Shown: piece after piece, positions 3,047 through 62,635 of the stretch
Position numbering within the stretch: the stretch's first letter is position 1
Layout: each line of letters starts with the position of its first letter
NCBI RefSeq assembly: GCF_053078305.1
Contig: NZ_CP166879.1
DNA length: 64,000 bases
Reading direction: 5' to 3' (one strand)
The notes under the pieces: model-generated
What the model saw: only the letters and a program-made list of their open reading frames with translations
Databases searched by the model: none
What the model was told of the DNA's origin: nothing
Program-made: the position numbers and the translations under genes

Positions 3047-6000
3047 ATGTTAAGGGTCTACCATTCCAATCGTCTGGACGTGCTGGAAGCGTTGATGGAG
3101 TTTATTGTCGAACGCGAACGGCTGGACGATCCTTTCGAACCAGAGATGATTCTGGTGCAAAGTACCGGTATGGCACAGTGGCTGCAAATGACCCTGTCGC
3201 AAAAGTTTGGTATTGCGGCAAACATTGATTTTCCGCTGCCTGCGAGCTTTATCTGGGATATGTTCGTCCGGGTGTTACCGGAGATCCCCAAAGAGAGCGC
3301 CTTTAACAAACAGAGCATGAGCTGGAAACTGATGACTCTGCTGCCGCAATTGCTGGAGCGCGAAGACTTTACCCTGTTGCGGCATTATCTGACTGACGAT
3401 AGCGACAAGCGAAAACTGTTCCAGCTTTCCTCAAAAGCGGCGGACCTGTTTGACCAGTATCTGGTCTATCGCCCGGAGTGGCTGGCACAATGGGAAACAG
3501 GACATTTGGTTGAAGGGCTGGGAGAAGCACAGGCCTGGCAAGCGCCGTTGTGGAAGGCTCTGGTGGAATATACCCATGAACTCGGGCAACCGCGCTGGCA
3601 CCGCGCGAATCTCTATCAGCGCTTTATCGAAACGCTGGAGTCCGCGACGACCTGCCCGCCGGGGTTACCTTCGCGCGTCTTTATATGCGGTATTTCCGCG
3701 TTACCGCCTGTTTATCTCCAGGCGCTCCAGGCGCTGGGTAAACATATTGAAATCCATCTCCTGTTTACCAACCCCTGCCGTTATTACTGGGGCGACATTA
3801 AAGATCCTGCTTATCTGGCGAAACTACTGACTCGCCAGCGCCGACACAGTTTTGAAGATCGCGAATTACCGCTATTTCGCGACAGCGAAAATGCCGGGCA
3901 GCTCTTTAACAGCGATGGTGAACAGGATGTCGGCAACCCGCTGCTGGCCTCATGGGGCAAGCTTGGGCGCGACTACATTTATCTCCTTTCTGACCTGGAG
4001 AGCAGCCAGGAGCTGGACGCCTTTGTCGATGTCACGCCAGATAACCTGCTGCATAACATTCAGTCTGACATTCTGGAACTGGAAAACCGCGCTGTTGCTG
4101 GTGTGAACATCGAAGAGTTTTCCCGTAGCGATAACAAACGCCCGCTTGATCCACTGGATAGCAGTATCACCTTCCACGTTTGCCATAGCCCGCAGCGTGA
4201 AGTTGAAGTTTTGCACGATCGCCTGCTGGCGATGCTGGAGGAAGACCCGACACTTACTCCGCGCGACATCATCGTGATGGTGGCCGACATCGACAGCTAC
4301 AGTCCGTTTATTCAGGCAGTGTTTGGTAGCGCACCTGCGGATCGTTACCTGCCTTACGCCATTTCCGACCGTCGTGCGCGGCAGTCACATCCGGTACTGG
4401 AAGCGTTTATCAGCCTGTTATCACTGCCTGACAGTCGCTTTGTGTCAGAGGATGTGCTGGCGCTGCTGGATGTGCCGGTGCTGGCGGCGCGGTTTGACAT
4501 CACCGAAGAAGGGCTGCGTTATTTACGCCAGTGGGTCAACGAGTCCGGCATTCGTTGGGGCATAGATGACGACAACGTTCGCGAGCTGGAACTCCCCGCC
4601 ACCGGACAACACACCTGGCGATTTGGCCTGACGCGTATGTTGTTGGGCTACGCGATGGAGAGCGCGCAGGGCGAGTGGCAATCGGTTCTACCTTATGATG
4701 AATCGAGCGGCTTAATTGCAGAACTGGTGGGGCATCTGGCTTCACTGCTAATGCAGCTAAACATCTGGCGTCGCGGGCTTGCACAGGAGCGTCCGCTGGA
4801 AGAGTGGTTGCCGGTTTGTCGCGATATGCTCAACGCCTTCTTCCTGCCGGATGCGGAAACCGAAGCGGCGATGACGCTGATCGAACAACAATGGCAGGCG
4901 ATTATCGCCGAAGGTTTAGGTGCGCAGTATGGCGACGCGGTGCCGCTGTCACTATTGCGTGATGAACTGGCACAGCGCCTGGATCAAGAACGTATCAGCC
5001 AGCGTTTTCTCGCCGGACCGGTTAACATTTGTACTCTGATGCCAATGCGTTCAATTCCGTTCAAAGTGGTTTGCCTGCTGGGAATGAACGACGGCGTTTA
5101 TCCACGTCAGCTTGCGCCATTGGGCTTTGACCTGATGAGCCAGAAACCGAAGCGTGGCGACCGTAGCCGTCGCGATGACGACCGCTATCTGTTCCTGGAA
5201 GCGTTAATTTCAGCGCAGCAAAAACTCTATATCAGCTATATCGGGCGTTCCATTCAGGATAACAGTGAACGTTTCCCGTCGGTACTGGTGCAGGAACTGA
5301 TCGACTACATCGGGCAAAGTCATTATCTACCGGGCGATGAAGCGCTCAACTGTGATGAAAGCGAGGCAAGGGTAAAAGCGCATCTTACTTGCCTCCATAC
5401 CCGAATGCCGTTTGATCCACAAAACTATCAGCCAGGCGAACGACAAAGCTATGCTCGTGAATGGCTACCTGCGGCCAGCCAGGCTGGTAAAGCACATTCT
5501 GAATTTGTTCAGCCGCTGCCGTTTACCTTACCGGAAACCGTGCCGCTGGAAACGCTACAACGATTCTGGGCACATCCGGTGCGGGCGTTCTTCCAGATGC
5601 GTTTGCAGGTGAACTTCCGTACTGAAGACAGCGAAATCCCCGACACCGAGCCATTTATTCTGGAAGGACTTAGCCGTTATCAAATCAATCAGCAGTTATT
5701 GAATGCACTGGTTGAGCAGGATGATGCCGAACGCTTGTTCCGCCGCTTCCGGGCGGCAGGGGATTTACCGTATGGCGCTTTTGGTGAAATTTTCTGGGAA
5801 ACACAGTGCCAGGAGATGCAGCAGCTTGCCGACAGAGTCATTGCCTGTCGCCAGCCGGGGCAGAGTATGGAAATTGATCTCGCTTGCAACGGTGTGCAGA
5901 TAACTGGTTGGTTGCCGCAGGTGCAGCCGGATGGCTTGTTGCGCTGGCGTCCCTCTTTATTAAGTGTGGCGCAGGGAATGCAACTTTGGCTGGAACACCT

Positions 6001-6590: not shown

Positions 6591-9479
6591 ATGCCCCGCA
6601 GCACCTGGTTCAAAGCATTATTGTTGTTAGTTGCCCTTTGGGCACCATTAAGTCAGGCAGAAACGGGATGGCAGCCGATTCAGGAAACCATCCGTAAAAG
6701 TGATAAAGATAACCGCCAGTATCAGGCTATACGTCTGGATAACGGTATGGTGGTCTTGCTGGTTTCTGATCCGCAGGCAGTTAAATCGCTCTCGGCGCTG
6801 GTGGTGCCCGTTGGGTCGCTGGAAGATCCCGAGGCGTACCAGGGGCTGGCACATTACCTTGAACATATGAGTCTGATGGGGTCGAAAAAGTACCCGCAGG
6901 CTGACAGTCTGGCCGAATATCTCAAAATGCACGGCGGTAGTCACAATGCCAGCACGGCACCGTATCGCACGGCTTTCTATCTGGAAGTTGAGAACGACGC
7001 CTTGCCCGGTGCGGTAGACCGCCTGGCCGATGCTATTGCAGAACCCTTGCTCGACAAGAAATACGCCGAACGTGAGCGTAATGCAGTGAACGCTGAATTA
7101 ACCATGGCGCGTACGCGTGACGGGATGCGCATGGCACAGGTCAGCGCAGAAACCATTAACCCGGCACACCCCGGTTCAAAGTTTTCTGGTGGTAACCTCG
7201 AAACTTTAAGCGACAAACCTGGTAATCCGGTGCAGCAGGCGCTGAAAGATTTCCACGAGAAGTACTATTCCGCCAATTTGATGAAGGCGGTTATTTACAG
7301 TAATAAACCGCTGCCGGAGTTGGCAAAAATGGCGGCGGACACCTTTGGTCGCGTGCCGAACAAAGAGAGCAAAAAACCGGAAATCACCGTGCCGGTAGTC
7401 ACCGACGCGCAAAAGGGCATTATCATTCATTACGTCCCAGCGCTGCCGCGTAAAGTTCTGCGCGTTGAGTTTCGCATCGATAACAACTCAGCGAAGTTCC
7501 GCAGTAAAACGGATGAATTGATTACCTATCTGATTGGTAATCGCAGCCCAGGTACACTGTCTGACTGGCTGCAAAAGCAGGGGTTAGTTGAGGGCATTAG
7601 CGCCAACTCCGATCCTATCGTCAACGGCAACAGCGGCGTATTAGCGATCTCTGCGTCTTTAACCGATAAAGGTCTGGCGAATCGCGATCAGGTTGTGGCG
7701 GCTATTTTTAGCTACCTCAATTTGTTACGTGAAAAAGGGATCGATAAACAATACTTCGATGAACTGGCGAATGTGCTGGATATCGACTTCCGTTATCCGT
7801 CAATCACCCGTGATATGGATTACGTCGAATGGCTGGCAGATACCATGATTCGCGTTCCGGTTGAGCATACGCTGGATGCAGTCAATATTGCCGATCGGTA
7901 CGATGCTAAAGCAGTAAAAGAACGTCTGGCGATGATGACGCCGCAGAATGCGCGTATCTGGTATATCAGCCCGAAAGAGCCGCACAATAAAACGGCTTAT
8001 TTTGTCGATGCGCCGTATCAGGTCGATAAAATCAGCGAACAAACTTTCGCTGACTGGCAGCAAAAAGCTGCCAGTATTGCGCTCTCCTTACCGGAGCTTA
8101 ACCCCTATATTCCTGACGATTTCTCGCTGATTAAGTCAGAGAAGAAATATGACCATCCAGAGCTGATTGTTGATGAGTCGAATCTGCGCGTGGTGTATGC
8201 GCCAAGCCGTTATTTTGCCAGCGAACCCAAAGCTGATGTCAGCCTGATTTTGCGTAATCCGAAAGCCATGGACAGCGCCCGCAATCAGGTGATGTTTGCG
8301 CTCAATGATTATCTCGCAGGGCTGGCGCTTGATCAGTTAAGCAACCAGGCGTCGGTTGGTGGCATAAGTTTTTCCACCAACGCTAACAACGGCCTTATGG
8401 TTAATGCTAATGGTTACACCCAGCGTCTGCCGCAGCTGTTCCAGGCATTGCTCGAGGGATACTTTAGCTATACCGCTACGGAAGATCAGCTTGAGCAGGC
8501 GAAGTCCTGGTATAACCAGATGATGGATTCCGCAGAAAAGGGTAAAGCGTTTGAGCAGGCGATTATGCCCGCGCAGATGCTCTCGCAAGTGCCGTACTTC
8601 TCGCGAGATGAACGGCGTAAAATTTTGCCCTCCATTACGTTGAAAGAGGTGCTGGCCTATCGCGACGCCTTAAAATCAGGGGCTCGACCAGAGTTTATGG
8701 TTATCGGCAACATGACCGAGGCCCAGGCAACAACGCTGGCACGCGATGTGCAAAAACAGTTGGGCGCTGATGGTTCAGAGTGGTGTCGAAACAAAGATGT
8801 AGTGGTCGATAAAAAACAATCCGTCATCTTTGAAAAAGCCGGTAACAGCACCGACTCCGCACTGGCAGCGGTATTTGTACCGACTGGCTACGATGAATAC
8901 ACCAGCTCAGCCTATAGCTCTCTGTTGGGGCAGATCGTACAGCCGTGGTTCTACAATCAGTTGCGTACCGAAGAACAATTGGGCTATGCCGTGTTTGCGT
9001 TTCCAATGAGCGTGGGGCGTCAGTGGGGCATGGGCTTCCTTTTGCAAAGCAATGATAAACAGCCTTCATTCTTGTGGGAGCGTTACAAGGCGTTTTTCCC
9101 AACCGCAGAGGCAAAATTGCGAGCGATGAAGCCAGATGAGTTTGCGCAAATCCAGCAGGCGGTAATTACCCAGATGCTGCAGGCACCGCAAACGCTCGGC
9201 GAAGAAGCATCGAAGTTAAGTAAAGATTTCGATCGCGGCAATATGCGCTTCGATTCGCGTGATAAAATCGTGGCCCAGATAAAACTGCTGACGCCGCAAA
9301 AACTTGCTGATTTCTTCCATCAGGCGGTGGTCGAGCCGCAAGGCATGGCTATTCTGTCGCAGATTTCCGGCAGCCAGAACGGGAAAGCCGAATATGTGCA
9401 TCCTGAAGGCTGGAAAGTGTGGGAGAACGTCAGCGCGTTGCAGCAAACAATGCCCCTGATGAGTGAAAAGAATGAGTGA
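6591..9479 (+). CDS. ptrA: Protease III (pitrilysin), periplasmic zinc metalloprotease
   Basis: 962-aa ORF with signal peptide and the inverted zinc-binding motif HYLEH; lies between recC and recB as in E. coli. Confidence 0.95.
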   Translation: MPRSTWFKALLLLVALWAPLSQAETGWQPIQETIRKSDKDNRQYQAIRLDNGMVVLLVSDPQAVKSLSALVVPVGSLEDPEAYQGLAHYLEHMSLMGSKKYPQADSLAEYLKMHGGSHNASTAPYRTAFYLEVENDALPGAVDRLADAIAEPLLDKKYAERERNAVNAELTMARTRDGMRMAQVSAETINPAHPGSKFSGGNLETLSDKPGNPVQQALKDFHEKYYSANLMKAVIYSNKPLPELAKMAADTFGRVPNKESKKPEITVPVVTDAQKGIIIHYVPALPRKVLRVEFRIDNNSAKFRSKTDELITYLIGNRSPGTLSDWLQKQGLVEGISANSDPIVNGNSGVLAISASLTDKGLANRDQVVAAIFSYLNLLREKGIDKQYFDELANVLDIDFRYPSITRDMDYVEWLADTMIRVPVEHTLDAVNIADRYDAKAVKERLAMMTPQNARIWYISPKEPHNKTAYFVDAPYQVDKISEQTFADWQQKAASIALSLPELNPYIPDDFSLIKSEKKYDHPELIVDESNLRVVYAPSRYFASEPKADVSLILRNPKAMDSARNQVMFALNDYLAGLALDQLSNQASVGGISFSTNANNGLMVNANGYTQRLPQLFQALLEGYFSYTATEDQLEQAKSWYNQMMDSAEKGKAFEQAIMPAQMLSQVPYFSRDERRKILPSITLKEVLAYRDALKSGARPEFMVIGNMTEAQATTLARDVQKQLGADGSEWCRNKDVVVDKKQSVIFEKAGNSTDSALAAVFVPTGYDEYTSSAYSSLLGQIVQPWFYNQLRTEEQLGYAVFAFPMSVGRQWGMGFLLQSNDKQPSFLWERYKAFFPTAEAKLRAMKPDEFAQIQQAVITQMLQAPQTLGEEASKLSKDFDRGNMRFDSRDKIVAQIKLLTPQKLADFFHQAVVEPQGMAILSQISGSQNGKAEYVHPEGWKVWENVSALQQTMPLMSEKNE

Positions 9480-12400
9480 TGTCGCCGAGACACTAGATCC
9501 TTTGCGCTTGCCCTTACAGGGCGAGCGTCTGATTGAAGCCTCTGCCGGCACAGGCAAAACCTTTACGATTGCGGCGCTCTATTTGCGCCTGTTACTTGGA
9601 CTAGGCGGTTCCGCCGCCTTTCCCCGCCCGCTGACCGTTGAAGAACTGCTGGTGGTCACCTTTACCGAGGCTGCCACGGCAGAATTGCGCGGTCGTATCC
9701 GTAGCAATATCCACGAGTTGCGCATCGCCTGTCTGCGTGAAACCACCGACAATCCACTGTACGAACGTCTGCTGGAAGAGATCGACGATAAAGCGCAAGC
9801 CGCGCAGTGGTTGTTGTTAGCCGAACGGCAGATGGATGAAGCGGCAGTCTTTACTATTCACGGCTTTTGCCAGCGCATGCTCAACCTGAATGCCTTTGAA
9901 TCCGGCATGCTGTTTGAGCAGCAGCTGATTGAAGATGAGTCTCTGCTACGCTACCAGGCCTGCGCCGATTTCTGGCGTCGCCACTGCTACCCGCTGCCGC
10001 GTGAAATAGCCCAGGTCGTCTTTGAAACCTGGAAAGGGCCGCAGGCGTTGCTGAGCGATATTAATCGTTATCTGCAAGGCGAAGCGCCGGTTATCAAAGC
10101 ACCGCCGCCCGATGATGAAACGCTGGCTTCCCGTCACGCGCAAATTGTGGCGCGTATTGATACGGTAAAACAGCAGTGGCGCGACGCAGTGGGTGAACTG
10201 GATGCGCTGATCGAATCTTCTGGTATTGATCGACGCAAGTTTAACCGTAGCAATCAGGCTAAATGGATCGACAAGATCAGCGCCTGGGCAGAAGAAGAGA
10301 CAAACAGTTATCAGTTGCCGGAGTCGCTGGAAAAATTCTCCCAGCGTTTCTTAGAAGATCGCACGAAGGCCGGGGGGGAAACCCCGCGACATCCACTGTT
10401 TGAGGCGATCGATCAACTGCTTGCAGAACCATTGTCGATCCGCGATCTGGTGATCACCCGCGCATTGGCTGAGATCCGCGAAACAGTAGCGCGTGAAAAA
10501 CGCCGCCGTGGCGAATTGGGTTTTGATGACATGTTAAGTCGGCTCGATTCCGCGCTGCGTAGCGAAAGCGGTGAGGTGTTGGCAGCGGCGATCCGTACGC
10601 GATTCCCGGTGGCAATGATCGATGAATTTCAGGATACCGACCCCCAGCAGTACCGAATTTTTCGCCGTATCTGGCACCATCAGCCGGAAACCGCATTGTT
10701 GCTAATTGGCGACCCGAAGCAGGCCATATATGCATTCCGGGGTGCGGATATCTTCACTTATATGAAGGCGCGTAGCGAAGTTCACGCCCACTACACTTTA
10801 GACACCAACTGGCGTTCCGCACCAGGAATGGTGAACAGCGTGAACAAGCTTTTCAGCCAGACTGATGACGCGTTCATGTTTCGCGAAATACCGTTTATTC
10901 CAGTGAAATCAGCCGGGAAAAATCAGGCGTTACGTTTTGTATTTAAAGGTGAAACGCAGCCTGCGATGAAAATGTGGCTGATGGAAGGCGAAAGCTGCGG
11001 CGTTGGCGACTATCAAAGTACCATGGCGCAGGTATGTGCTGCGCAAATCCGCGACTGGCTACAAGCCGGACAGCGGGGCGAAGCGTTGCTGATGAACGGC
11101 GACGAAGCGCGTCCGGTGCGTGCTTCGGACATCAGTGTGCTGGTGCGCAGCCGCCAGGAGGCCGCCCAAGTGCGCGATGCCTTAACGTTGCTGGAAATCC
11201 CTTCCGTTTACCTTTCGAACCGCGACAGTGTTTTTGAAACTCTGGAAGCGCAGGAAATGCTTTGGTTGTTGCAGGCGGTGATGACGCCCGAACGTGAGAA
11301 CACCCTGCGTAGTGCGCTGGCAACGTCAATGATGGGGCTGAACGCGCTGGATATCGAAACGCTGAATAATGACGAACATGCGTGGGACGCGGTGGTCGAA
11401 GAGTTCGATGGTTATCGGCAAATCTGGCGCAAACGTGGCGTTATGCCGATGCTGCGGGCGCTGATGTCGGCGCGTAACATTGCAGAAAACTTGCTGGCAA
11501 CGGCAGGCGGTGAGCGGCGTCTTACCGATATCTTGCATATCAGCGAACTGCTACAAGAAGCCGGAACGCAGCTGGAAAGTGAACATGCGCTGGTACGCTG
11601 GTTATCGCAACATATCCTCGAGCCAGACAGTAATGCCTCCAGCCAACAAATGCGCCTCGAAAGTGATAAACATCTGGTGCAGATTGTCACGATCCATAAA
11701 TCGAAAGGGCTGGAATATCCGCTTGTCTGGTTGCCATTTATTACCAATTTCCGCGTCCAGGATCAGGCGTTTTATCACGATCGCCACTCGTTTGAGGCTG
11801 TTCTGGATCTTAACGCTGCGCCAGAAAGTGTCGATCTCGCGGAGGCCGAACGTCTGGCGGAAGATCTGCGTTTGCTTTACGTGGCGCTGACGCGTTCGGT
11901 TTGGCATTGTAGTCTCGGCGTTGCACCGCTGGTGCGCCGTCGTGGCGATAAAAAAGGTGACACCGACGTTCACCAAAGTGCGCTCGGGCGTTTGCTGCAA
12001 AAAGGGGAACCGCAAGATGCGGCAGGGCTTCGCACCTGTATTGAAGCGTTATGCGATGATGATATTGCCTGGCAAACGGCACAAACTGGTGATAACCAGC
12101 CATGGCAGGTTAATGATGCTTTAACTGCAGAATTGAATGCCAGGACATTACAACGATTGCCCGGCGATAACTGGCGCGTCACCAGCTACTCAGGTTTACA
12201 ACAGCGTGGTCACGGAATCGCTCAGGATCTGATGCCACGGCTGGATGTCGATGCCGCAGGCGTTGCCAGCATCGTTGAAGAACCGACGTTAACACCGCAT
12301 CAGTTCCCGCGCGGTGCGTCACCGGGGACGTTTTTGCACAGTTTGTTTGAAGACCTGGATTTTACCCAGCCGGTTGAACCGAACTGGGTGCGGGAAAAAC

Positions 12401-57518: not shown

Positions 57519-58832
<1,314 letters not shown>

Positions 58833-58857
58833 GTCTGACTTTATCTGATTTAAAAAT

Positions 58858-58883
58858 GCCAGCCTTCGGGCTGGCGTTTTTTA
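58858..58883. terminator. Bidirectional terminator between eno (+) and the convergent TPM gene (-)
   Basis: GCCAGCC-TTCG-GGCTGGC followed by GTTTTTT and preceded by an A-run. Confidence 0.8.
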
Positions 58884-58891
58884 TGGTTGAG

Positions 58892-59785
58892 TTACCAGCG
58901 ACCGGACGCGCCGCCACCGCCAGAAGAACCGCCCCCGCCGCTAAATCCGCCGCCACTTGAGCCTCCACCGGAAGAGGATGAAGAAGAACTTTTTCTTGAA
59001 GCTCTTTCTTTACTGAGTTTTTTGTATTTGGCGCGTAGCTTTTTATTGACGATAAGCCAAAAAATAACCAGTGGTACGCTCGCAAAAGGCGTTAACATAC
59101 CGCAGGCAACGATTAAATTGGTCCATGGTCCTGGCTCGGCAACATAGAGGAATACCATCCCGTAAATGGCGCCAGTGAGAGTGATCCAGGGTAAATTCGA
59201 CGGATCGGTAAAAACAATAAAATATGAAAGTACCGCCAGCAATATAATTACAGCAAGCGATAATGGAATAGGGGGATTGATACTGTAATAATCCCCCTTG
59301 TCTTCCGATAATTCACCATTCAACAGAAGCGCGCCGATATTTTCGCTTGCCAGTGTTAATCCACCCATCAGGTCATCACTTTTGAAGGCAGGGATCAATA
59401 TATCCCTGATAATCTTCGCCGCTTGCAGGTCGGTAACCACCCCTTCCAGCCCGTAGCCAACCTCAATACGAACAGCATGATCCTCCCAGGCAACCAGAAG
59501 TAAAATACCATCGTTTCTCTGCTTATCTCCCAGTTTCCAGCTATCAAAAACGCGTGTTGCATATTGTTCAATGGAATCGTCTCCGGTGGACGGCACTACT
59601 AATACAGCGACCTGCGCCCGTGTTTTATGTGTAATATCCTGCAGTTGCTGTGTCAGTGATTGTTGTTCAGAAGTGCTTAACGTACCAGTAATATCGGTCA
59701 CCTGTTGGCGCAGCTCCGGCACAGCAATTTGCTGGGCAAGCCCAGGAAGGCACCACAAAGTGAATAGAATAAAGATTAAGCGCAT
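58892..59785 (-). CDS. TPM-domain membrane protein (YgcG-like), eno-proximal paralogue
   Basis: Signal peptide MRLIFILFTLWCLPGLAQQ, then TPM-like region (…ITGTLSTSEQQSLTQQLQ…AQVAVLVVPSTG…), hydrophobic segments, and C-terminal Gly/Ser tail ending SGRW; ATG at 59785 preferred over the TTG at 59797. Confidence 0.8.
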   Translation of the reverse strand: MRLIFILFTLWCLPGLAQQIAVPELRQQVTDITGTLSTSEQQSLTQQLQDITHKTRAQVAVLVVPSTGDDSIEQYATRVFDSWKLGDKQRNDGILLLVAWEDHAVRIEVGYGLEGVVTDLQAAKIIRDILIPAFKSDDLMGGLTLASENIGALLLNGELSEDKGDYYSINPPIPLSLAVIILLAVLSYFIVFTDPSNLPWITLTGAIYGMVFLYVAEPGPWTNLIVACGMLTPFASVPLVIFWLIVNKKLRAKYKKLSKERASRKSSSSSSSGGGSSGGGFSGGGGSSGGGGASGRW

Positions 59786-59790
59786 TACGA

Positions 59791-60939
59791 TCACCAACGG
59801 CCGGATGAACCGCCGCCTCCTGAAGAACCGCCACCACCGCGGAAAGAATTTCTCGACGAAGAGCGAGAATGAGCATTACGATTCCCCGTTTTCCTGTTGC
59901 TTTTTTCTCCTGACCCCAGCTTAAGATTGCCAGTAAATTTGGCCACAATGATCAGCAGAACGATGCCAGCAATGGTTATTGGGCCGATAAAATGATCAAT
60001 TAACCCAATAATTGTTGAGATGAATGCAATATCTTTATTACTGGCGAACACCAGGCACCATCCCACAATAATTATCAGCATCACGACAAACAATGAATTT
60101 CGTCCTGATTCACGAACCTGCGGAGTCTTCTTTTGTTTTTTCACTTTAGCGTTTTTATTTTTTGGGGCCAGCATCATAGGAAATACGCGGCACAAATTAA
60201 AAACTACCGCGAGACGCTGCTTGCAGGTTGTTGCTAACAATAAACTAAAACAAACGACCGATACCCGCCGAATGATGACATCGTCCTGAAAGGAGAAAAA
60301 CCAGACCATAGGGGTAATCATCGATATCATCCATATGCCACGCCGTGGGCGGCTGGCAAATCGCCAGAGGACAACGATGGCAACGATCATCAGCAGTGTC
60401 CAGGCAAGACATGGCAGCGAACGTTGCGGATTAGCAAACAGATGATTGGCTAAAGCATCCAAAGGGCTAAGGTTCGCTTTGATATGGGTAAACTGTGCGA
60501 TGCTTTCAATTCCGCCCGTTAATCCAGCAAAGAGATTGTTTTTTTCGAATTCTGGCTGCATATGGTAACGAACAATTTGCGCAGCTTGTTCCGGCGGCAA
60601 CATCTCTTCCAGTCCATGTCCAATCTTCATTGACGCCAGCCCTTCCGGCCATACGACGAGAATTAAGATACCTTCGCCATATCGCTTCTCTCCAACGGGT
60701 TTCCAGTGATATACCCCGTATCTCTGCGAGGCTGCAAGTTTAATGTTTTTGCCCCCTGTGGTCGGCGTAACCAACACGGCCACCTGGAAGTGGTTTTGCT
60801 GCTCGAGAGTCTGTAATTGTTGAGTTAAAGCAGTTTGTTCTTCTGTCGTTAATGTCCCGGTTAAGTCATTCACTGAAGGCAATCGTTCAGCGAATACCTG
60901 AAAACTGCATAGCATCAGAAGTAAGAGAAAAATACGCAT
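59791..60939 (-). CDS. TPM-domain membrane protein, divergent and longer middle paralogue
   Basis: Signal peptide, TPM-like N-terminal region (SVNDLTGTLTTEEQTALTQQLQ…), several hydrophobic helices, a Lys-rich segment (KNKNAKVKKQKK) and a Gly/Ser tail ending SGRW. Confidence 0.75.
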   Translation of the reverse strand: MRIFLLLLMLCSFQVFAERLPSVNDLTGTLTTEEQTALTQQLQTLEQQNHFQVAVLVTPTTGGKNIKLAASQRYGVYHWKPVGEKRYGEGILILVVWPEGLASMKIGHGLEEMLPPEQAAQIVRYHMQPEFEKNNLFAGLTGGIESIAQFTHIKANLSPLDALANHLFANPQRSLPCLAWTLLMIVAIVVLWRFASRPRRGIWMISMITPMVWFFSFQDDVIIRRVSVVCFSLLLATTCKQRLAVVFNLCRVFPMMLAPKNKNAKVKKQKKTPQVRESGRNSLFVVMLIIIVGWCLVFASNKDIAFISTIIGLIDHFIGPITIAGIVLLIIVAKFTGNLKLGSGEKSNRKTGNRNAHSRSSSRNSFRGGGGSSGGGGSSGRW

Positions 60940-60956
60940 ATCAATTCCTTTTGTTA

Positions 60957-61847
60957 CTAGCGCCCGGAAGCGCCACCGCCACCAGATGAACCGCCACCAC
61001 CGCTGAAATTGTCATTGTTGAATGAAGAGGATGACGATGATGAATAGTGGGAGGAAGAATTGCTTCTTGTATGGCGTGATGGCTGGTTGACATCACGCAT
61101 CAAATCCCGAACTTTTTTGCCGAAGGGAGTAACAGCGATGGCGACAGCCAGGAACGGTGTGGCGAAGCAGAGTAATGTTGCGAGTACTCCCCAGCTTCCG
61201 CTGAAGCCTGCTATAGGTAAAACAAAGGCCAGTACAATAGCTGCGAAGCAAATTACTCCCAGCGTTTTGATATATCCTCTGGCAGAAATAAACGTCAGTA
61301 CTATCGCCCAGACTAACAATGCCCACCAACCGCTAAAGGGCAAAGGGTGATCGGTCGGTGTAATCGTTGCTAAATTATTCCCCGTCAGACGACTTTCAAG
61401 ATCGCTGATCCCCTTTTGTAAACCGACAGCAAGGTCGCCTTTTTTAAATGCAGGAATAATATTGTTGCGAATAATTTTCCCGGACTGCGCATCCGTAATA
61501 ATACCTTCCAGTCCGTAACCGATTTCAATACGCACGGTATGATCCTGCCAGGCGACTAACAGTAGAACGCCATTATCGCGGTCTTTATCACCCGGTTTCC
61601 AGCTATCGAATACCCGCGTTGCGTACTGCTCGATGGTTTCATCGCCTGTTGTATCAACCACTAACACGACCAACTGTGCGTGGTTTTTTTGCGTCAGGGC
61701 TTTAATCTGGTTGGTCAGGGTGTTTACTTCGCTGTTTGTTAATGTGCCGGTTAAGTCATTCACATACTTGGGGGATTCAGGTACTGGAATTTGTGTGGCA
61801 AACACAGATGAACAGAAGAAAGCCATAAGGAAGATAAAATTTCGCAT
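60957..61847 (-). CDS. TPM-domain membrane protein (YgcG-like), LemA-proximal paralogue
   Basis: From the ATG at 61847 (MRNFIFLMAFFCSSVFA signal peptide), TPM-like region closely similar to the eno-proximal paralogue, hydrophobic segments and a Ser-rich/Gly-rich tail. Confidence 0.8.
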   Translation of the reverse strand: MRNFIFLMAFFCSSVFATQIPVPESPKYVNDLTGTLTNSEVNTLTNQIKALTQKNHAQLVVLVVDTTGDETIEQYATRVFDSWKPGDKDRDNGVLLLVAWQDHTVRIEIGYGLEGIITDAQSGKIIRNNIIPAFKKGDLAVGLQKGISDLESRLTGNNLATITPTDHPLPFSGWWALLVWAIVLTFISARGYIKTLGVICFAAIVLAFVLPIAGFSGSWGVLATLLCFATPFLAVAIAVTPFGKKVRDLMRDVNQPSRHTRSNSSSHYSSSSSSSFNNDNFSGGGGSSGGGGASGR

Positions 61848-61860
61848 AGAACTTCCCCGC

Positions 61861-62463
61861 TTAATGAGCATTAGCATTCTGGCTAAAATCTATTGTTGGG
61901 GCTTTACTTACTGCGGTGACATCATCCGGCAAATAATTTTTCTTTGGTGTGTAATCCATGACCTTTGCGGTTAATACAGCGGGGAATTTGCGGATAGTGA
62001 CATTATATTGTTCAATGGCTTTAATATATCTTCCTCGCGCAACGGCAATTCTATTTTCACTTCCTTCGAGCTGTACCATTAAGTTTTGATAGAGCTCTTG
62101 AGCCTTTAACTCAGGGTAACGCTCACTAATTATCGTTAACTGACCGAGAGTGCGAGTCACCTGCGCCTGGGCCTGTTGCCAGGCTTGTAATTTTTGTGCA
62201 TCTCCCGGAGCTTGCTGAAGATCGCTGCTGGCGCGATTAGCCTGGCTACGAGCCAATGTTACGGCTTCCAAAACGTCTTTTTCATGGCTGGAATAACCTT
62301 TAATACTGGCGACAAGATTAGGAATAAGATCGGCGCGACGTTGATATTGATTCAATACCTCAGACCAGGAGGCGTTAACCTGCTCATCATAGGTTTGAAT
62401 ATCGTTATATCCACAGCCTGATAAATTGAAAATAAATATAATTACGATGAATATTCTGAGCAT
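61861..62463 (-). CDS. LemA-family lipoprotein
   Basis: 200-aa ORF with lipobox (…IFNLSGC) and LemA-like sequence (…WSEVLNQYQRRADLIPNLV…); first gene of a four-gene minus-strand cluster. Confidence 0.8.
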   Translation of the reverse strand: MLRIFIVIIFIFNLSGCGYNDIQTYDEQVNASWSEVLNQYQRRADLIPNLVASIKGYSSHEKDVLEAVTLARSQANRASSDLQQAPGDAQKLQAWQQAQAQVTRTLGQLTIISERYPELKAQELYQNLMVQLEGSENRIAVARGRYIKAIEQYNVTIRKFPAVLTAKVMDYTPKKNYLPDDVTAVSKAPTIDFSQNANAH

Positions 62464-62635
62464 GTTTAAATCCCTTTTAATTAATTCCTTAAAACATAAT
62501 ACTCTGCTTCATTTTATTCTTTATGATCTAATCCACTTTTTGCCATAAACCTGCCTGTAACAGAATGTTAATAAGACATGATTGTTGTGGCAGGATCTGC
62601 AATAATTAACAATTATCCACTTCACAGAGAATGCT

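Follow-up and report, generated by a model that had tools for sequence, protein, structure and literature searches.

Why do three neighbouring genes of Escherichia coli end in nearly the same way? In a stretch of 64,000 nt from contig NZ_CP166879.1 (RefSeq assembly GCF_053078305.1), which we call the window, the interval between eno and queE contains lemA and three genes coding for TPM-domain proteins, all four on the minus strand. We call these three genes TPM1, TPM2 and TPM3, TPM1 being the one found at the position of ygcG. The proteins have Gly/Ser-rich C-terminal tails, and the tails might be either DNA repeats which recombine or peptides with a function of their own. The best explanation as a whole, to which we give somewhat better than even chances, is that the tail consists of a conserved tip, specific to one protein family, carried on a variable spacer and located in the cytoplasm. 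We propose a docking-peptide mechanism for it.

The C-terminal tip and its conservation

Open reading frames (ORFs) and profile searches bear out a preliminary description of the window in this respect: All three TPM genes have Gly/Ser-rich tails (at 58892-58990, 59791-59860 and 60957-61030), and their G+C content is 58–65%, compared with about 45% in the gene bodies. Each tail has two parts, a Gly/Ser(/Phe) spacer, which varies in both length and sequence, and a near-invariant tip of 17 residues at the C-terminus. They are found in the following positions:

58895-58945, minus strand: conserved tip of TPM1, last 17 codons (FSGGGGSSGGGGASGRW), from the alignment; AlphaFold2 gives a strand at residues 288-296
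58946-58996, minus strand: variable Ser/Gly spacer of TPM1 (RKSSSSSSSGGGSSGGG), predicted to be disordered, site of a length variant (+SGGG, 12 nt)
59794-59844, minus strand: conserved tip of TPM2, last 17 codons, from the alignment
60954-61007, minus strand: tip of TPM3, 16 codons followed by TAG (60957-60959) and by the ancestral TAA stop (60954-60956)

A full-library homology search with TPM1 gave 22,467 cluster representatives at E<=1e-3. Among the best 150 of them, 125 end in Trp and have the consensus FSGGGG-x-[SF]-GGGGASG-x-W. Written in full, the consensus at the extreme C-terminus is [FYW]-S-G-G-G-G-x-[SF]-G-G-G-G-A-S-G-x-W; one such tip, as a peptide, reads FSGGGGSFGGGGASGSW. Most positions are 86–100% conserved, and positions -12, -11, -7, -6, -5 and -3 reach 98–100%. 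The 20–40 residues ahead of the tip are merely Gly/Ser-rich. The remaining 25 proteins mostly look like fragments or frameshifts; two of them carry one or two residues past the Trp, and in two others this tip has Phe or Tyr as its last residue. The terminal motif is thus clearly kept in homologues from other genomes. There is general support for the suggestion that it is a functional signal, since its 17 residues are near-invariant across diverse bacteria and under strong purifying selection.

The tip is also specific. We have searched one genome of each species for DNA that could code for GGGGA[ST]GxW and a stop codon, using a degenerate pattern; the strict motif pattern has 0.00 expected matches in shuffles of the window. 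At least 120 loci contain the pattern and, going by their titles, they come from no fewer than ten phyla. Pseudomonadota, Bacteroidota, Verrucomicrobiota, Omnitrophota, Nitrospinota, Planctomycetota, Lentisphaerota, Ignavibacteriota, Negativicutes and Parcubacteria are named among the matches listed, to which all counts of motif-ending ORFs and of their neighbours given in this work refer. PF04536 (TPM_phosphatase) is present in 111 of the 114 ORFs ending in the motif, and the other three run off the end of a contig. No other Gly-tailed family was found in the neighbourhoods of the loci with the tip pattern, though DUF2207 proteins may have tails of a similar kind. The preliminary description had proposed to look for this terminus in other protein families: Among the matches listed it belongs to TPM proteins, so we consider it a family hallmark and not a shared sorting tag. 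The family is that of the YgcG-type (COG1512) TPM membrane proteins, and the tip travels with lemA. The GGGGASG of the tip also recalls the GGGTG[ST]G signature of tubulin/FtsZ, a resemblance on which nothing here is based.

A homology search with the tail alone gave 16 short fragments, mostly from E. coli/Shigella, and is uninformative for such a low-complexity query. Matches of the tails with the Pfam family YxzE ("bacteriocin") were rejected, they are compositional (23.8 bits for a cut-off of 40).

How do the three tips of the window compare with the consensus? The tip of TPM1, which ends in ASGRW, fits it exactly. TPM2, whose tail ends in FRGGGGSSGGGGSSGRW, has SSGRW as its last residues and deviates with R at -15 and S at -4, both of them seen in the family. 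The tip of TPM3 fits the consensus except for the terminal W, in whose place there is a stop: The tail ends in FSGGGGSSGGGGASGR (ASGR only), followed by TAG. The common SGRW terminus initially described is therefore present in TPM1 and TPM2, while TPM3 ends in SGR in this window. The TAG replaces a TGG (Trp), and TGG-TAA is found in all seven other E. coli loci with TPM3 which we have fetched (L001, L003 and L124–L128 in the numbering of our comparison loci). To judge from these loci, the terminal Trp of TPM3 is lost here through one base change. This single base change removes the terminal Trp alone; it may amount to a natural knock-out of the tip, or else be due to an error in sequencing.

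The DNA of the tails had been described as near-identical, which does not hold when the three 3' ends are aligned. Only the last ~51 nt can be aligned, with 76–80% identity, and the longest exact run common to paralogous tails is 11–16 nt. When the last 17 codons are compared between paralogues, third positions differ in 8–10 cases out of 17, first and second positions in 1–3 out of 34. This excess of third-position changes, together with the short exact runs, argues for selection on the peptide and against recent gene conversion. The three tails appear to be old paralogues, kept alike by purifying selection on the peptide and not by DNA exchange. Their DNA is similar because of this selection, Gly being coded by GGN.

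The reverse strand of the tails had also been said to produce spurious proline-rich ORFs. One such ORF is found on the plus strand opposite the TPM1 tail (58887-59147, reading ...DAPPPPEEPPPPLNPPPLEPPP...). The ORFs which overlap the tails of TPM2 and TPM3 differ from it in frame or strand and are not rich in proline, so the statement is correct for TPM1 only.

Topology and gene context of the tailed proteins

The three proteins share a common layout: an N-terminal hydrophobic leader, the TPM domain, several hydrophobic helices, a basic stretch and the Gly/Ser tail. This layout is taken from the sequences, a hydropathy scan and the helices predicted by AlphaFold2; signal peptides were judged by eye and by hydropathy. 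In a profile search, PF04536 is found in TPM1, TPM2 and TPM3 with E-values of 2.9e-38, 2e-21 and 5e-41 and scores of 131, 77 and 140 bits, respectively (cut-off 22.1). The membrane region of TPM1 contains about three transmembrane helices. TPM2 has a divergent TPM domain and a larger polytopic membrane region.

The AlphaFold2 model of full TPM1, based on an alignment of 93 sequences, has a mean pLDDT of 82.9. Helices are found after the TPM fold at residues 175-193, 195-215 and 220-257. The spacer (residues 258-282) has a pLDDT below 50, while the last block reaches about 95 and contains a strand at 288-296 according to DSSP. When residues 160-297 are modelled alone, with the matching trimmed alignment, the tip appears as coil with a pLDDT of 54–58, and the spacer blocks have ~50–54. 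In these models, the confident placement of the tip depends on the N-terminal part which contains the TPM domain (residues 1-159). A Foldseek search with the TPM1 model matches 5ANP, 7TBR, 2KW7, 3PVH, 8C7I and 4OA3 (E from 4e-10 to 2e-4); the best match is 5ANP, with E 4e-10 and a TM-score of 0.89 over the target.

Where is the tail located? A signal peptide which exports the TPM domain, followed by an odd number of transmembrane helices, would leave the tail in the cytoplasm. We infer from this arrangement that the tail is the cytoplasmic end of an otherwise periplasmic LemA/TPM module.

The LemA protein is a frequent neighbour. In the window, lemA is found directly upstream of TPM3 on the same strand, and LemA is encoded in 90 of the 120 loci with the tip pattern, mostly directly upstream. 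The N-terminus has a lipobox in 46 of these 90 neighbours of tailed TPM genes, the others have MKK and a transmembrane anchor. Either feature would make the LemA domain face outwards, so it should be periplasmic or outward-facing in these lineages, like the exported TPM domain. The Pfam text for the LemA family reportedly gives an extracellular N-terminus instead. In the window, the N-terminus of LemA (MLRIFIVIIFIFNLSGC) contains a lipobox (LSGC), and E. coli LemA is probably a periplasmic lipoprotein.

The other neighbour is a TPM paralogue without tail, adjacent to the tailed gene in at least 60 of the 82 cases with enough flanking sequence. PF04536 is matched by 68 of the 69 ORFs of this kind, and 67 of the 69 have no N-terminal hydrophobic segment. 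There is no hydrophobic segment at all in 45 of them; 19 have an internal two-helix hairpin early in the domain. The protein usually ends in ...HFP..NELPD.pvvl. In most lineages its gene follows the tailed one downstream, while in Bacteroidota it stands between this gene and lemA. These proteins form a distinct TPM subfamily, without signal peptide or tail; examples are L074 9506-9997, L007 1024-1518 and L017 5613-6047, the first and the last of which adjoin the tailed genes at 8622-9503 and 4835-5629, respectively. The canonical unit would thus have three members: LemA facing outwards, a TPM protein which spans the membrane and exposes mainly its tail to the cytoplasm, and a second TPM protein located in the cytoplasm.

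Canonical operons with lemA, a tailed TPM gene and a TPM gene without signal peptide resemble the window in having lemA upstream, the same tip and the TPM fold. An example is the type represented by Bizionia BA41/BA42, which we take to be such a gene pair (PDB 5ANP, 4OA3). In these operons, the paralogue without signal peptide accompanies a single tailed TPM protein, which in most cases has just one helix; on the other hand, the E. coli locus departs from them with three tailed polytopic copies and no such paralogue in the operon. No TPM ORF without signal peptide is found between eno and queE in the window, the interval to which this search was limited.

Other TPM proteins are more distant. 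Psb32/TLP18.3, which takes part in photosystem II assembly/repair, also has a TPM fold and a C-terminal membrane anchor, but not the glycine-rich extension of the E. coli proteins. A preprint mentions that non-photosynthetic homologues of Psb32 carry such an extension. The NCBIfam model for Psb32 (NF047379) gives 31.5 bits for TPM1, 35.8 for TPM3 and no match for TPM2, far below the equivalog cut-off of 160. Among NCBIfam models, no curated YgcG model was matched, only sub-threshold matches to Psb32 and MamQ were found. In Bacillus subtilis, the TPM domain of YdjH, encoded in the pspA-ydjGHI operon, is also followed by what one paper calls a "low-complexity segment". There the gene is not accompanied by lemA, its neighbours code for PspA, a band-7 protein and zinc ribbons. 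The tail is thus an ordinary, already noted feature of a large uncharacterised family.

The eno-queE locus and its variants in E. coli

The features of the locus, other than the tails, are the following:

57534-58832, plus strand: eno
58853-58883, strand not assigned: putative terminator hairpin GCCAGCC-TTCG-GGCTGGC, G+C-rich, between an A run and a T run, read from the sequence and the alignment
58892-59785, minus strand: TPM1, the gene at the ygcG position, 297 amino acids from the ATG at 59785, PF04536
59791-60939, minus strand: TPM2, 382 amino acids, PF04536
60957-61847, minus strand: TPM3, 296 amino acids from the ATG at 61847, PF04536
61861-62463, minus strand: lemA, first gene of the operon, 200 amino acids, PF04011 (E 1e-48)
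62636 onward, plus strand: queE

The ATG of TPM3 at 61847 is the start annotated in the closest genome; the ORF itself spans 60957-61877. The ORF of TPM1 extends to 59797 if a TTG or GTG start is accepted, and this start region (59785-59797) overlaps the stop codon of TPM2. RefSeq uses the GTG start, with a 4-nt overlap of start and stop which suggests translational coupling between TPM2 and TPM1 within the operon. The hairpin lies between eno and TPM1, which are convergent, and is probably a bidirectional terminator shared by both.

The eno gene of the window is 100% identical to that of other O157:H7 strains, while the eno-queE locus is only 98.3% identical to O157 strains. Three TPM genes and lemA are found in 1,102 of 5,426 genomes. 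Another form, with lemA, a TPM3-like gene and an unrelated ORF of 120 amino acids, is found in 340 genomes. Most of the remaining genomes have the K-12 form, with ygcG and the small ORF yqcG, and forms with insertion sequences (IS4, ISEc45) were seen in the rows sampled. The interval between eno and queE (58833-62635) is a variable spot with at least four structural forms in E. coli, besides the IS4 and ISEc45 insertions. The 120 amino acid ORF (L001 489-851) is hydrophobic, has its own terminator and takes the place of TPM1 and TPM2. Despite the variability of the locus, a known anti-phage defence system finds no support: None of the four operon proteins, nor the 120 amino acid ORF, matches a PADLOC model at E<=0.01.

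The YgcG protein of K-12 resembles TPM1, adjoins eno and has a signal peptide, a TPM domain, about three transmembrane helices and a tail, whose last 25 residues (GGGSSGGGFSGGGGSSGGGGASGRW) are identical to those of TPM1. Nevertheless, K-12 has a single TPM gene and its lemA appears to have decayed to yqcG, while the window has three tailed paralogues and an intact lemA. The membrane regions of K-12-type and window-type proteins are unrelated in sequence (35–47% nucleotide identity in 60-column windows), but the last ~57 nt of the gene, the terminator hairpin and eno are 92–95% identical. The tail thus forms a boundary of the segment that was swapped between alleles. In K-12, the deletion extends from upstream of ygcG into lemA. 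A crossover between tails was rejected as the source of this single-gene form, whose junctions map to lemA and upstream of ygcG and not to the tails. The ORF yqcG (L002 1379-1519) is annotated as a "cell envelope stress response protein". This ORF can be aligned, base for base, with the first ~30 codons of lemA and the region upstream of them (window 62340-62540), which cover the signal-peptide region (IIFIF...YND). It seems to be what remained of lemA after the deletion which gave rise to the K-12 single-gene form.

Gene 1 is a mosaic in strains EC12 and EcPF5 (L128 293-1165 and L129 3193-4065): The first ~80 residues are identical to TPM1 of the window, and from there on, with a switch in the conserved IEQYATRVFD core, the protein is of the K-12 ygcG type.

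Within the tails, in-frame length changes are found in the spacer alone: O157 and RM14516 have +SGGG (12 nt) in TPM1, while EC12 and EcPF5 have +AH in TPM2. The tip of TPM2 shows substitutions among strains, G to V (SSVRW) and G to D (SSDRW), and codon 225 of TPM3 is a nonsense codon in one O157 strain (L124), the only locus where this is so. With the Trp loss described above, this nonsense mutation and the loss of lemA in K-12, the copies at this locus appear to be decaying in E. coli. In three loci, RefSeq calls TPM3 a pseudogene ("incomplete, missing C-terminus": L125 2589-3260, L127 2577-3248 and L128 2562-3233). The frame is open for all 297 codons in these loci, including the GRW tail, and the calls are probably an annotation artefact derived from a truncated reference protein.

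Does recombination explain these differences? The preliminary description considered the repeated DNA a substrate for exchange between paralogues, and the tails might be kept alike by gene conversion which also changes the copy number. The varying number of genes at the locus, the position of the tail at the edge of a swapped segment and the slippage indels in the spacer would agree with this idea. Nevertheless, synonymous sites between paralogous tips are near saturation. In E. coli, RecA-dependent exchange is efficient from roughly 25 bp on, so exact runs of 11–16 nt are too little shared sequence for it. The endpoints of the K-12 deletion are outside the tails, and another shortened form, that of EcPF5, has lost TPM3 and lemA at an insertion sequence. 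A comparison of tails across strains does show slippage and an allelic boundary, but no hybrid tail-tail junction is found among the nine E. coli loci examined. We do not retain recombination at the repeats as the cause of the copy-number differences and consider it very improbable.

A proposed docking peptide and other explanations

Our best guess for the mechanism, still a tentative one, is a flexible tether with a tip that docks on a TPM-fold domain. The spacer would be the tether, and the tip would be a docking peptide which adds a beta strand to the TPM-fold domain. The adjacent TPM paralogue without signal peptide would be its natural target in most bacteria. Such a layout is well known in the C-terminal tail of the single-stranded DNA-binding protein (SSB), where a variable, Gly-rich disordered linker is followed by a short, strictly conserved C-terminal peptide which docks on partners. 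The predicted TPM1 tail has these features, a linker with pLDDT below 50 and of variable length and a conserved tip. On the other hand, the SSB tail is acidic (...DDDIPF compared with GGGGASGxW) and belongs to a soluble DNA-binding protein: It is an analogy in the way of working, not in membership. A further step would be that the tip links the periplasmic LemA/TPM unit to the cytoplasmic TPM paralogue in a three-protein module spanning the inner membrane; we regard this as a rather unlikely extension.

Several points weigh against the docking peptide. The docking step comes from one AlphaFold2 model and one deletion control. The tip is modelled on the TPM domain of its own protein, which is expected on the other side of the membrane. 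Such a contact in cis is topologically impossible, so the modelled one can only stand in for a contact in trans. The tip may have an affinity for TPM folds, with the cytoplasmic paralogue as natural target, but AlphaFold2 may also be completing the edge of a sheet with the sole free C-terminal segment. The E. coli operon has no TPM partner without signal peptide, yet its tips are under purifying selection, therefore a TPM partner cannot be the whole story. The positive-inside count around the single transmembrane helix (K+R 2.86 before, 2.55 after) is not decisive; hydropathy counts are too noisy to settle the topology. Finally, in the literature we have searched, there are passing mentions of the tail and no functional study or experiment on it.

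If the docking peptide is accepted, its target could be different. The tip might bind some common component of the cytoplasm or further tails of its own kind, or it might attach to the membrane from the inside, where the terminal Trp would act as interfacial anchor, and the docking seen by AlphaFold2 would be an artefact. We give this perhaps one chance among several. The selection on E. coli tips without a TPM partner agrees with it, as does the fact that K-12-type strains retain an intact tail despite the loss of lemA, and the modelled contact in cis crosses the membrane. It does not account for the tail-less paralogue found next to most tailed genes, nor for the confident placement of the tip only when the TPM-containing part is present.

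Explanations which do not require docking fare worse. The tail might be a non-specific disordered spacer, an entropic bristle or a solubility tail without any recognised motif. The spacer itself is of low complexity, variable in length and predicted to be disordered, and "low-complexity segment" is also the term used in the literature. Nevertheless, the last 17 residues have a fixed spacing and are 86–100% conserved at most positions, and all 125 tailed representatives among the best 150 end in Trp; a generic spacer would not hold an exact terminus, and we find this explanation unlikely. We are equally doubtful about a degradation handle, an unstructured C-terminus where FtsH or another AAA+ protease would start turnover. 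FtsH needs a free cytosolic tail of ~20 residues to start the degradation of a membrane protein, and the tail, predicted to be cytoplasmic and disordered, would be long enough: In tailed proteins with a single helix, a median of ~60 residues follows the last helix. However, glycine-rich tracts are poor grips for unfoldases, and a handle has no need for an invariant 17-residue sequence confined to a single family.

The preliminary description had left the choice between a sorting, a processing and an interaction signal. Interaction is the reading which we favour. Being conserved, rich in Gly and placed at the very end of envelope proteins, the motif does recall the sorting or processing signals of the GlyGly-CTERM, PEP-CTERM or LPXTG kind, but the order is different: These tripartite signals run from motif to hydrophobic helix to basic tail, while in the TPM proteins the helix and the basic residues precede the Gly-rich stretch and the W, with nothing hydrophobic past the motif. 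Signals of this kind are borne by many unrelated cargo families and have a cognate sorting enzyme, while the motif is limited to one family among the matches listed. In addition, a cytoplasmic location is predicted for the tail, and there is already a signal peptide at the N-terminus of the proteins. No gene for a sortase, rhombosortase or exosortase is found in the operon, which is the region we inspected for them. A signal of this kind is hardly to be expected here.

In summary, for the window itself the result is a modest one: The repeats are ordinary features of a protein family, not a recombination device. What is added here is the exact 17-residue motif, its specificity for one family, the three-gene context and a docking hypothesis which can be tested. 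Few bacterial envelope proteins without a known mechanism are as widespread as the TPM and LemA proteins. If the tip does link the periplasmic unit to the cytoplasmic paralogue, they would form a widespread, undescribed module for envelope-stress sensing or complex assembly, and the E. coli locus would be a derived variant of it, with three tailed copies and no partner.

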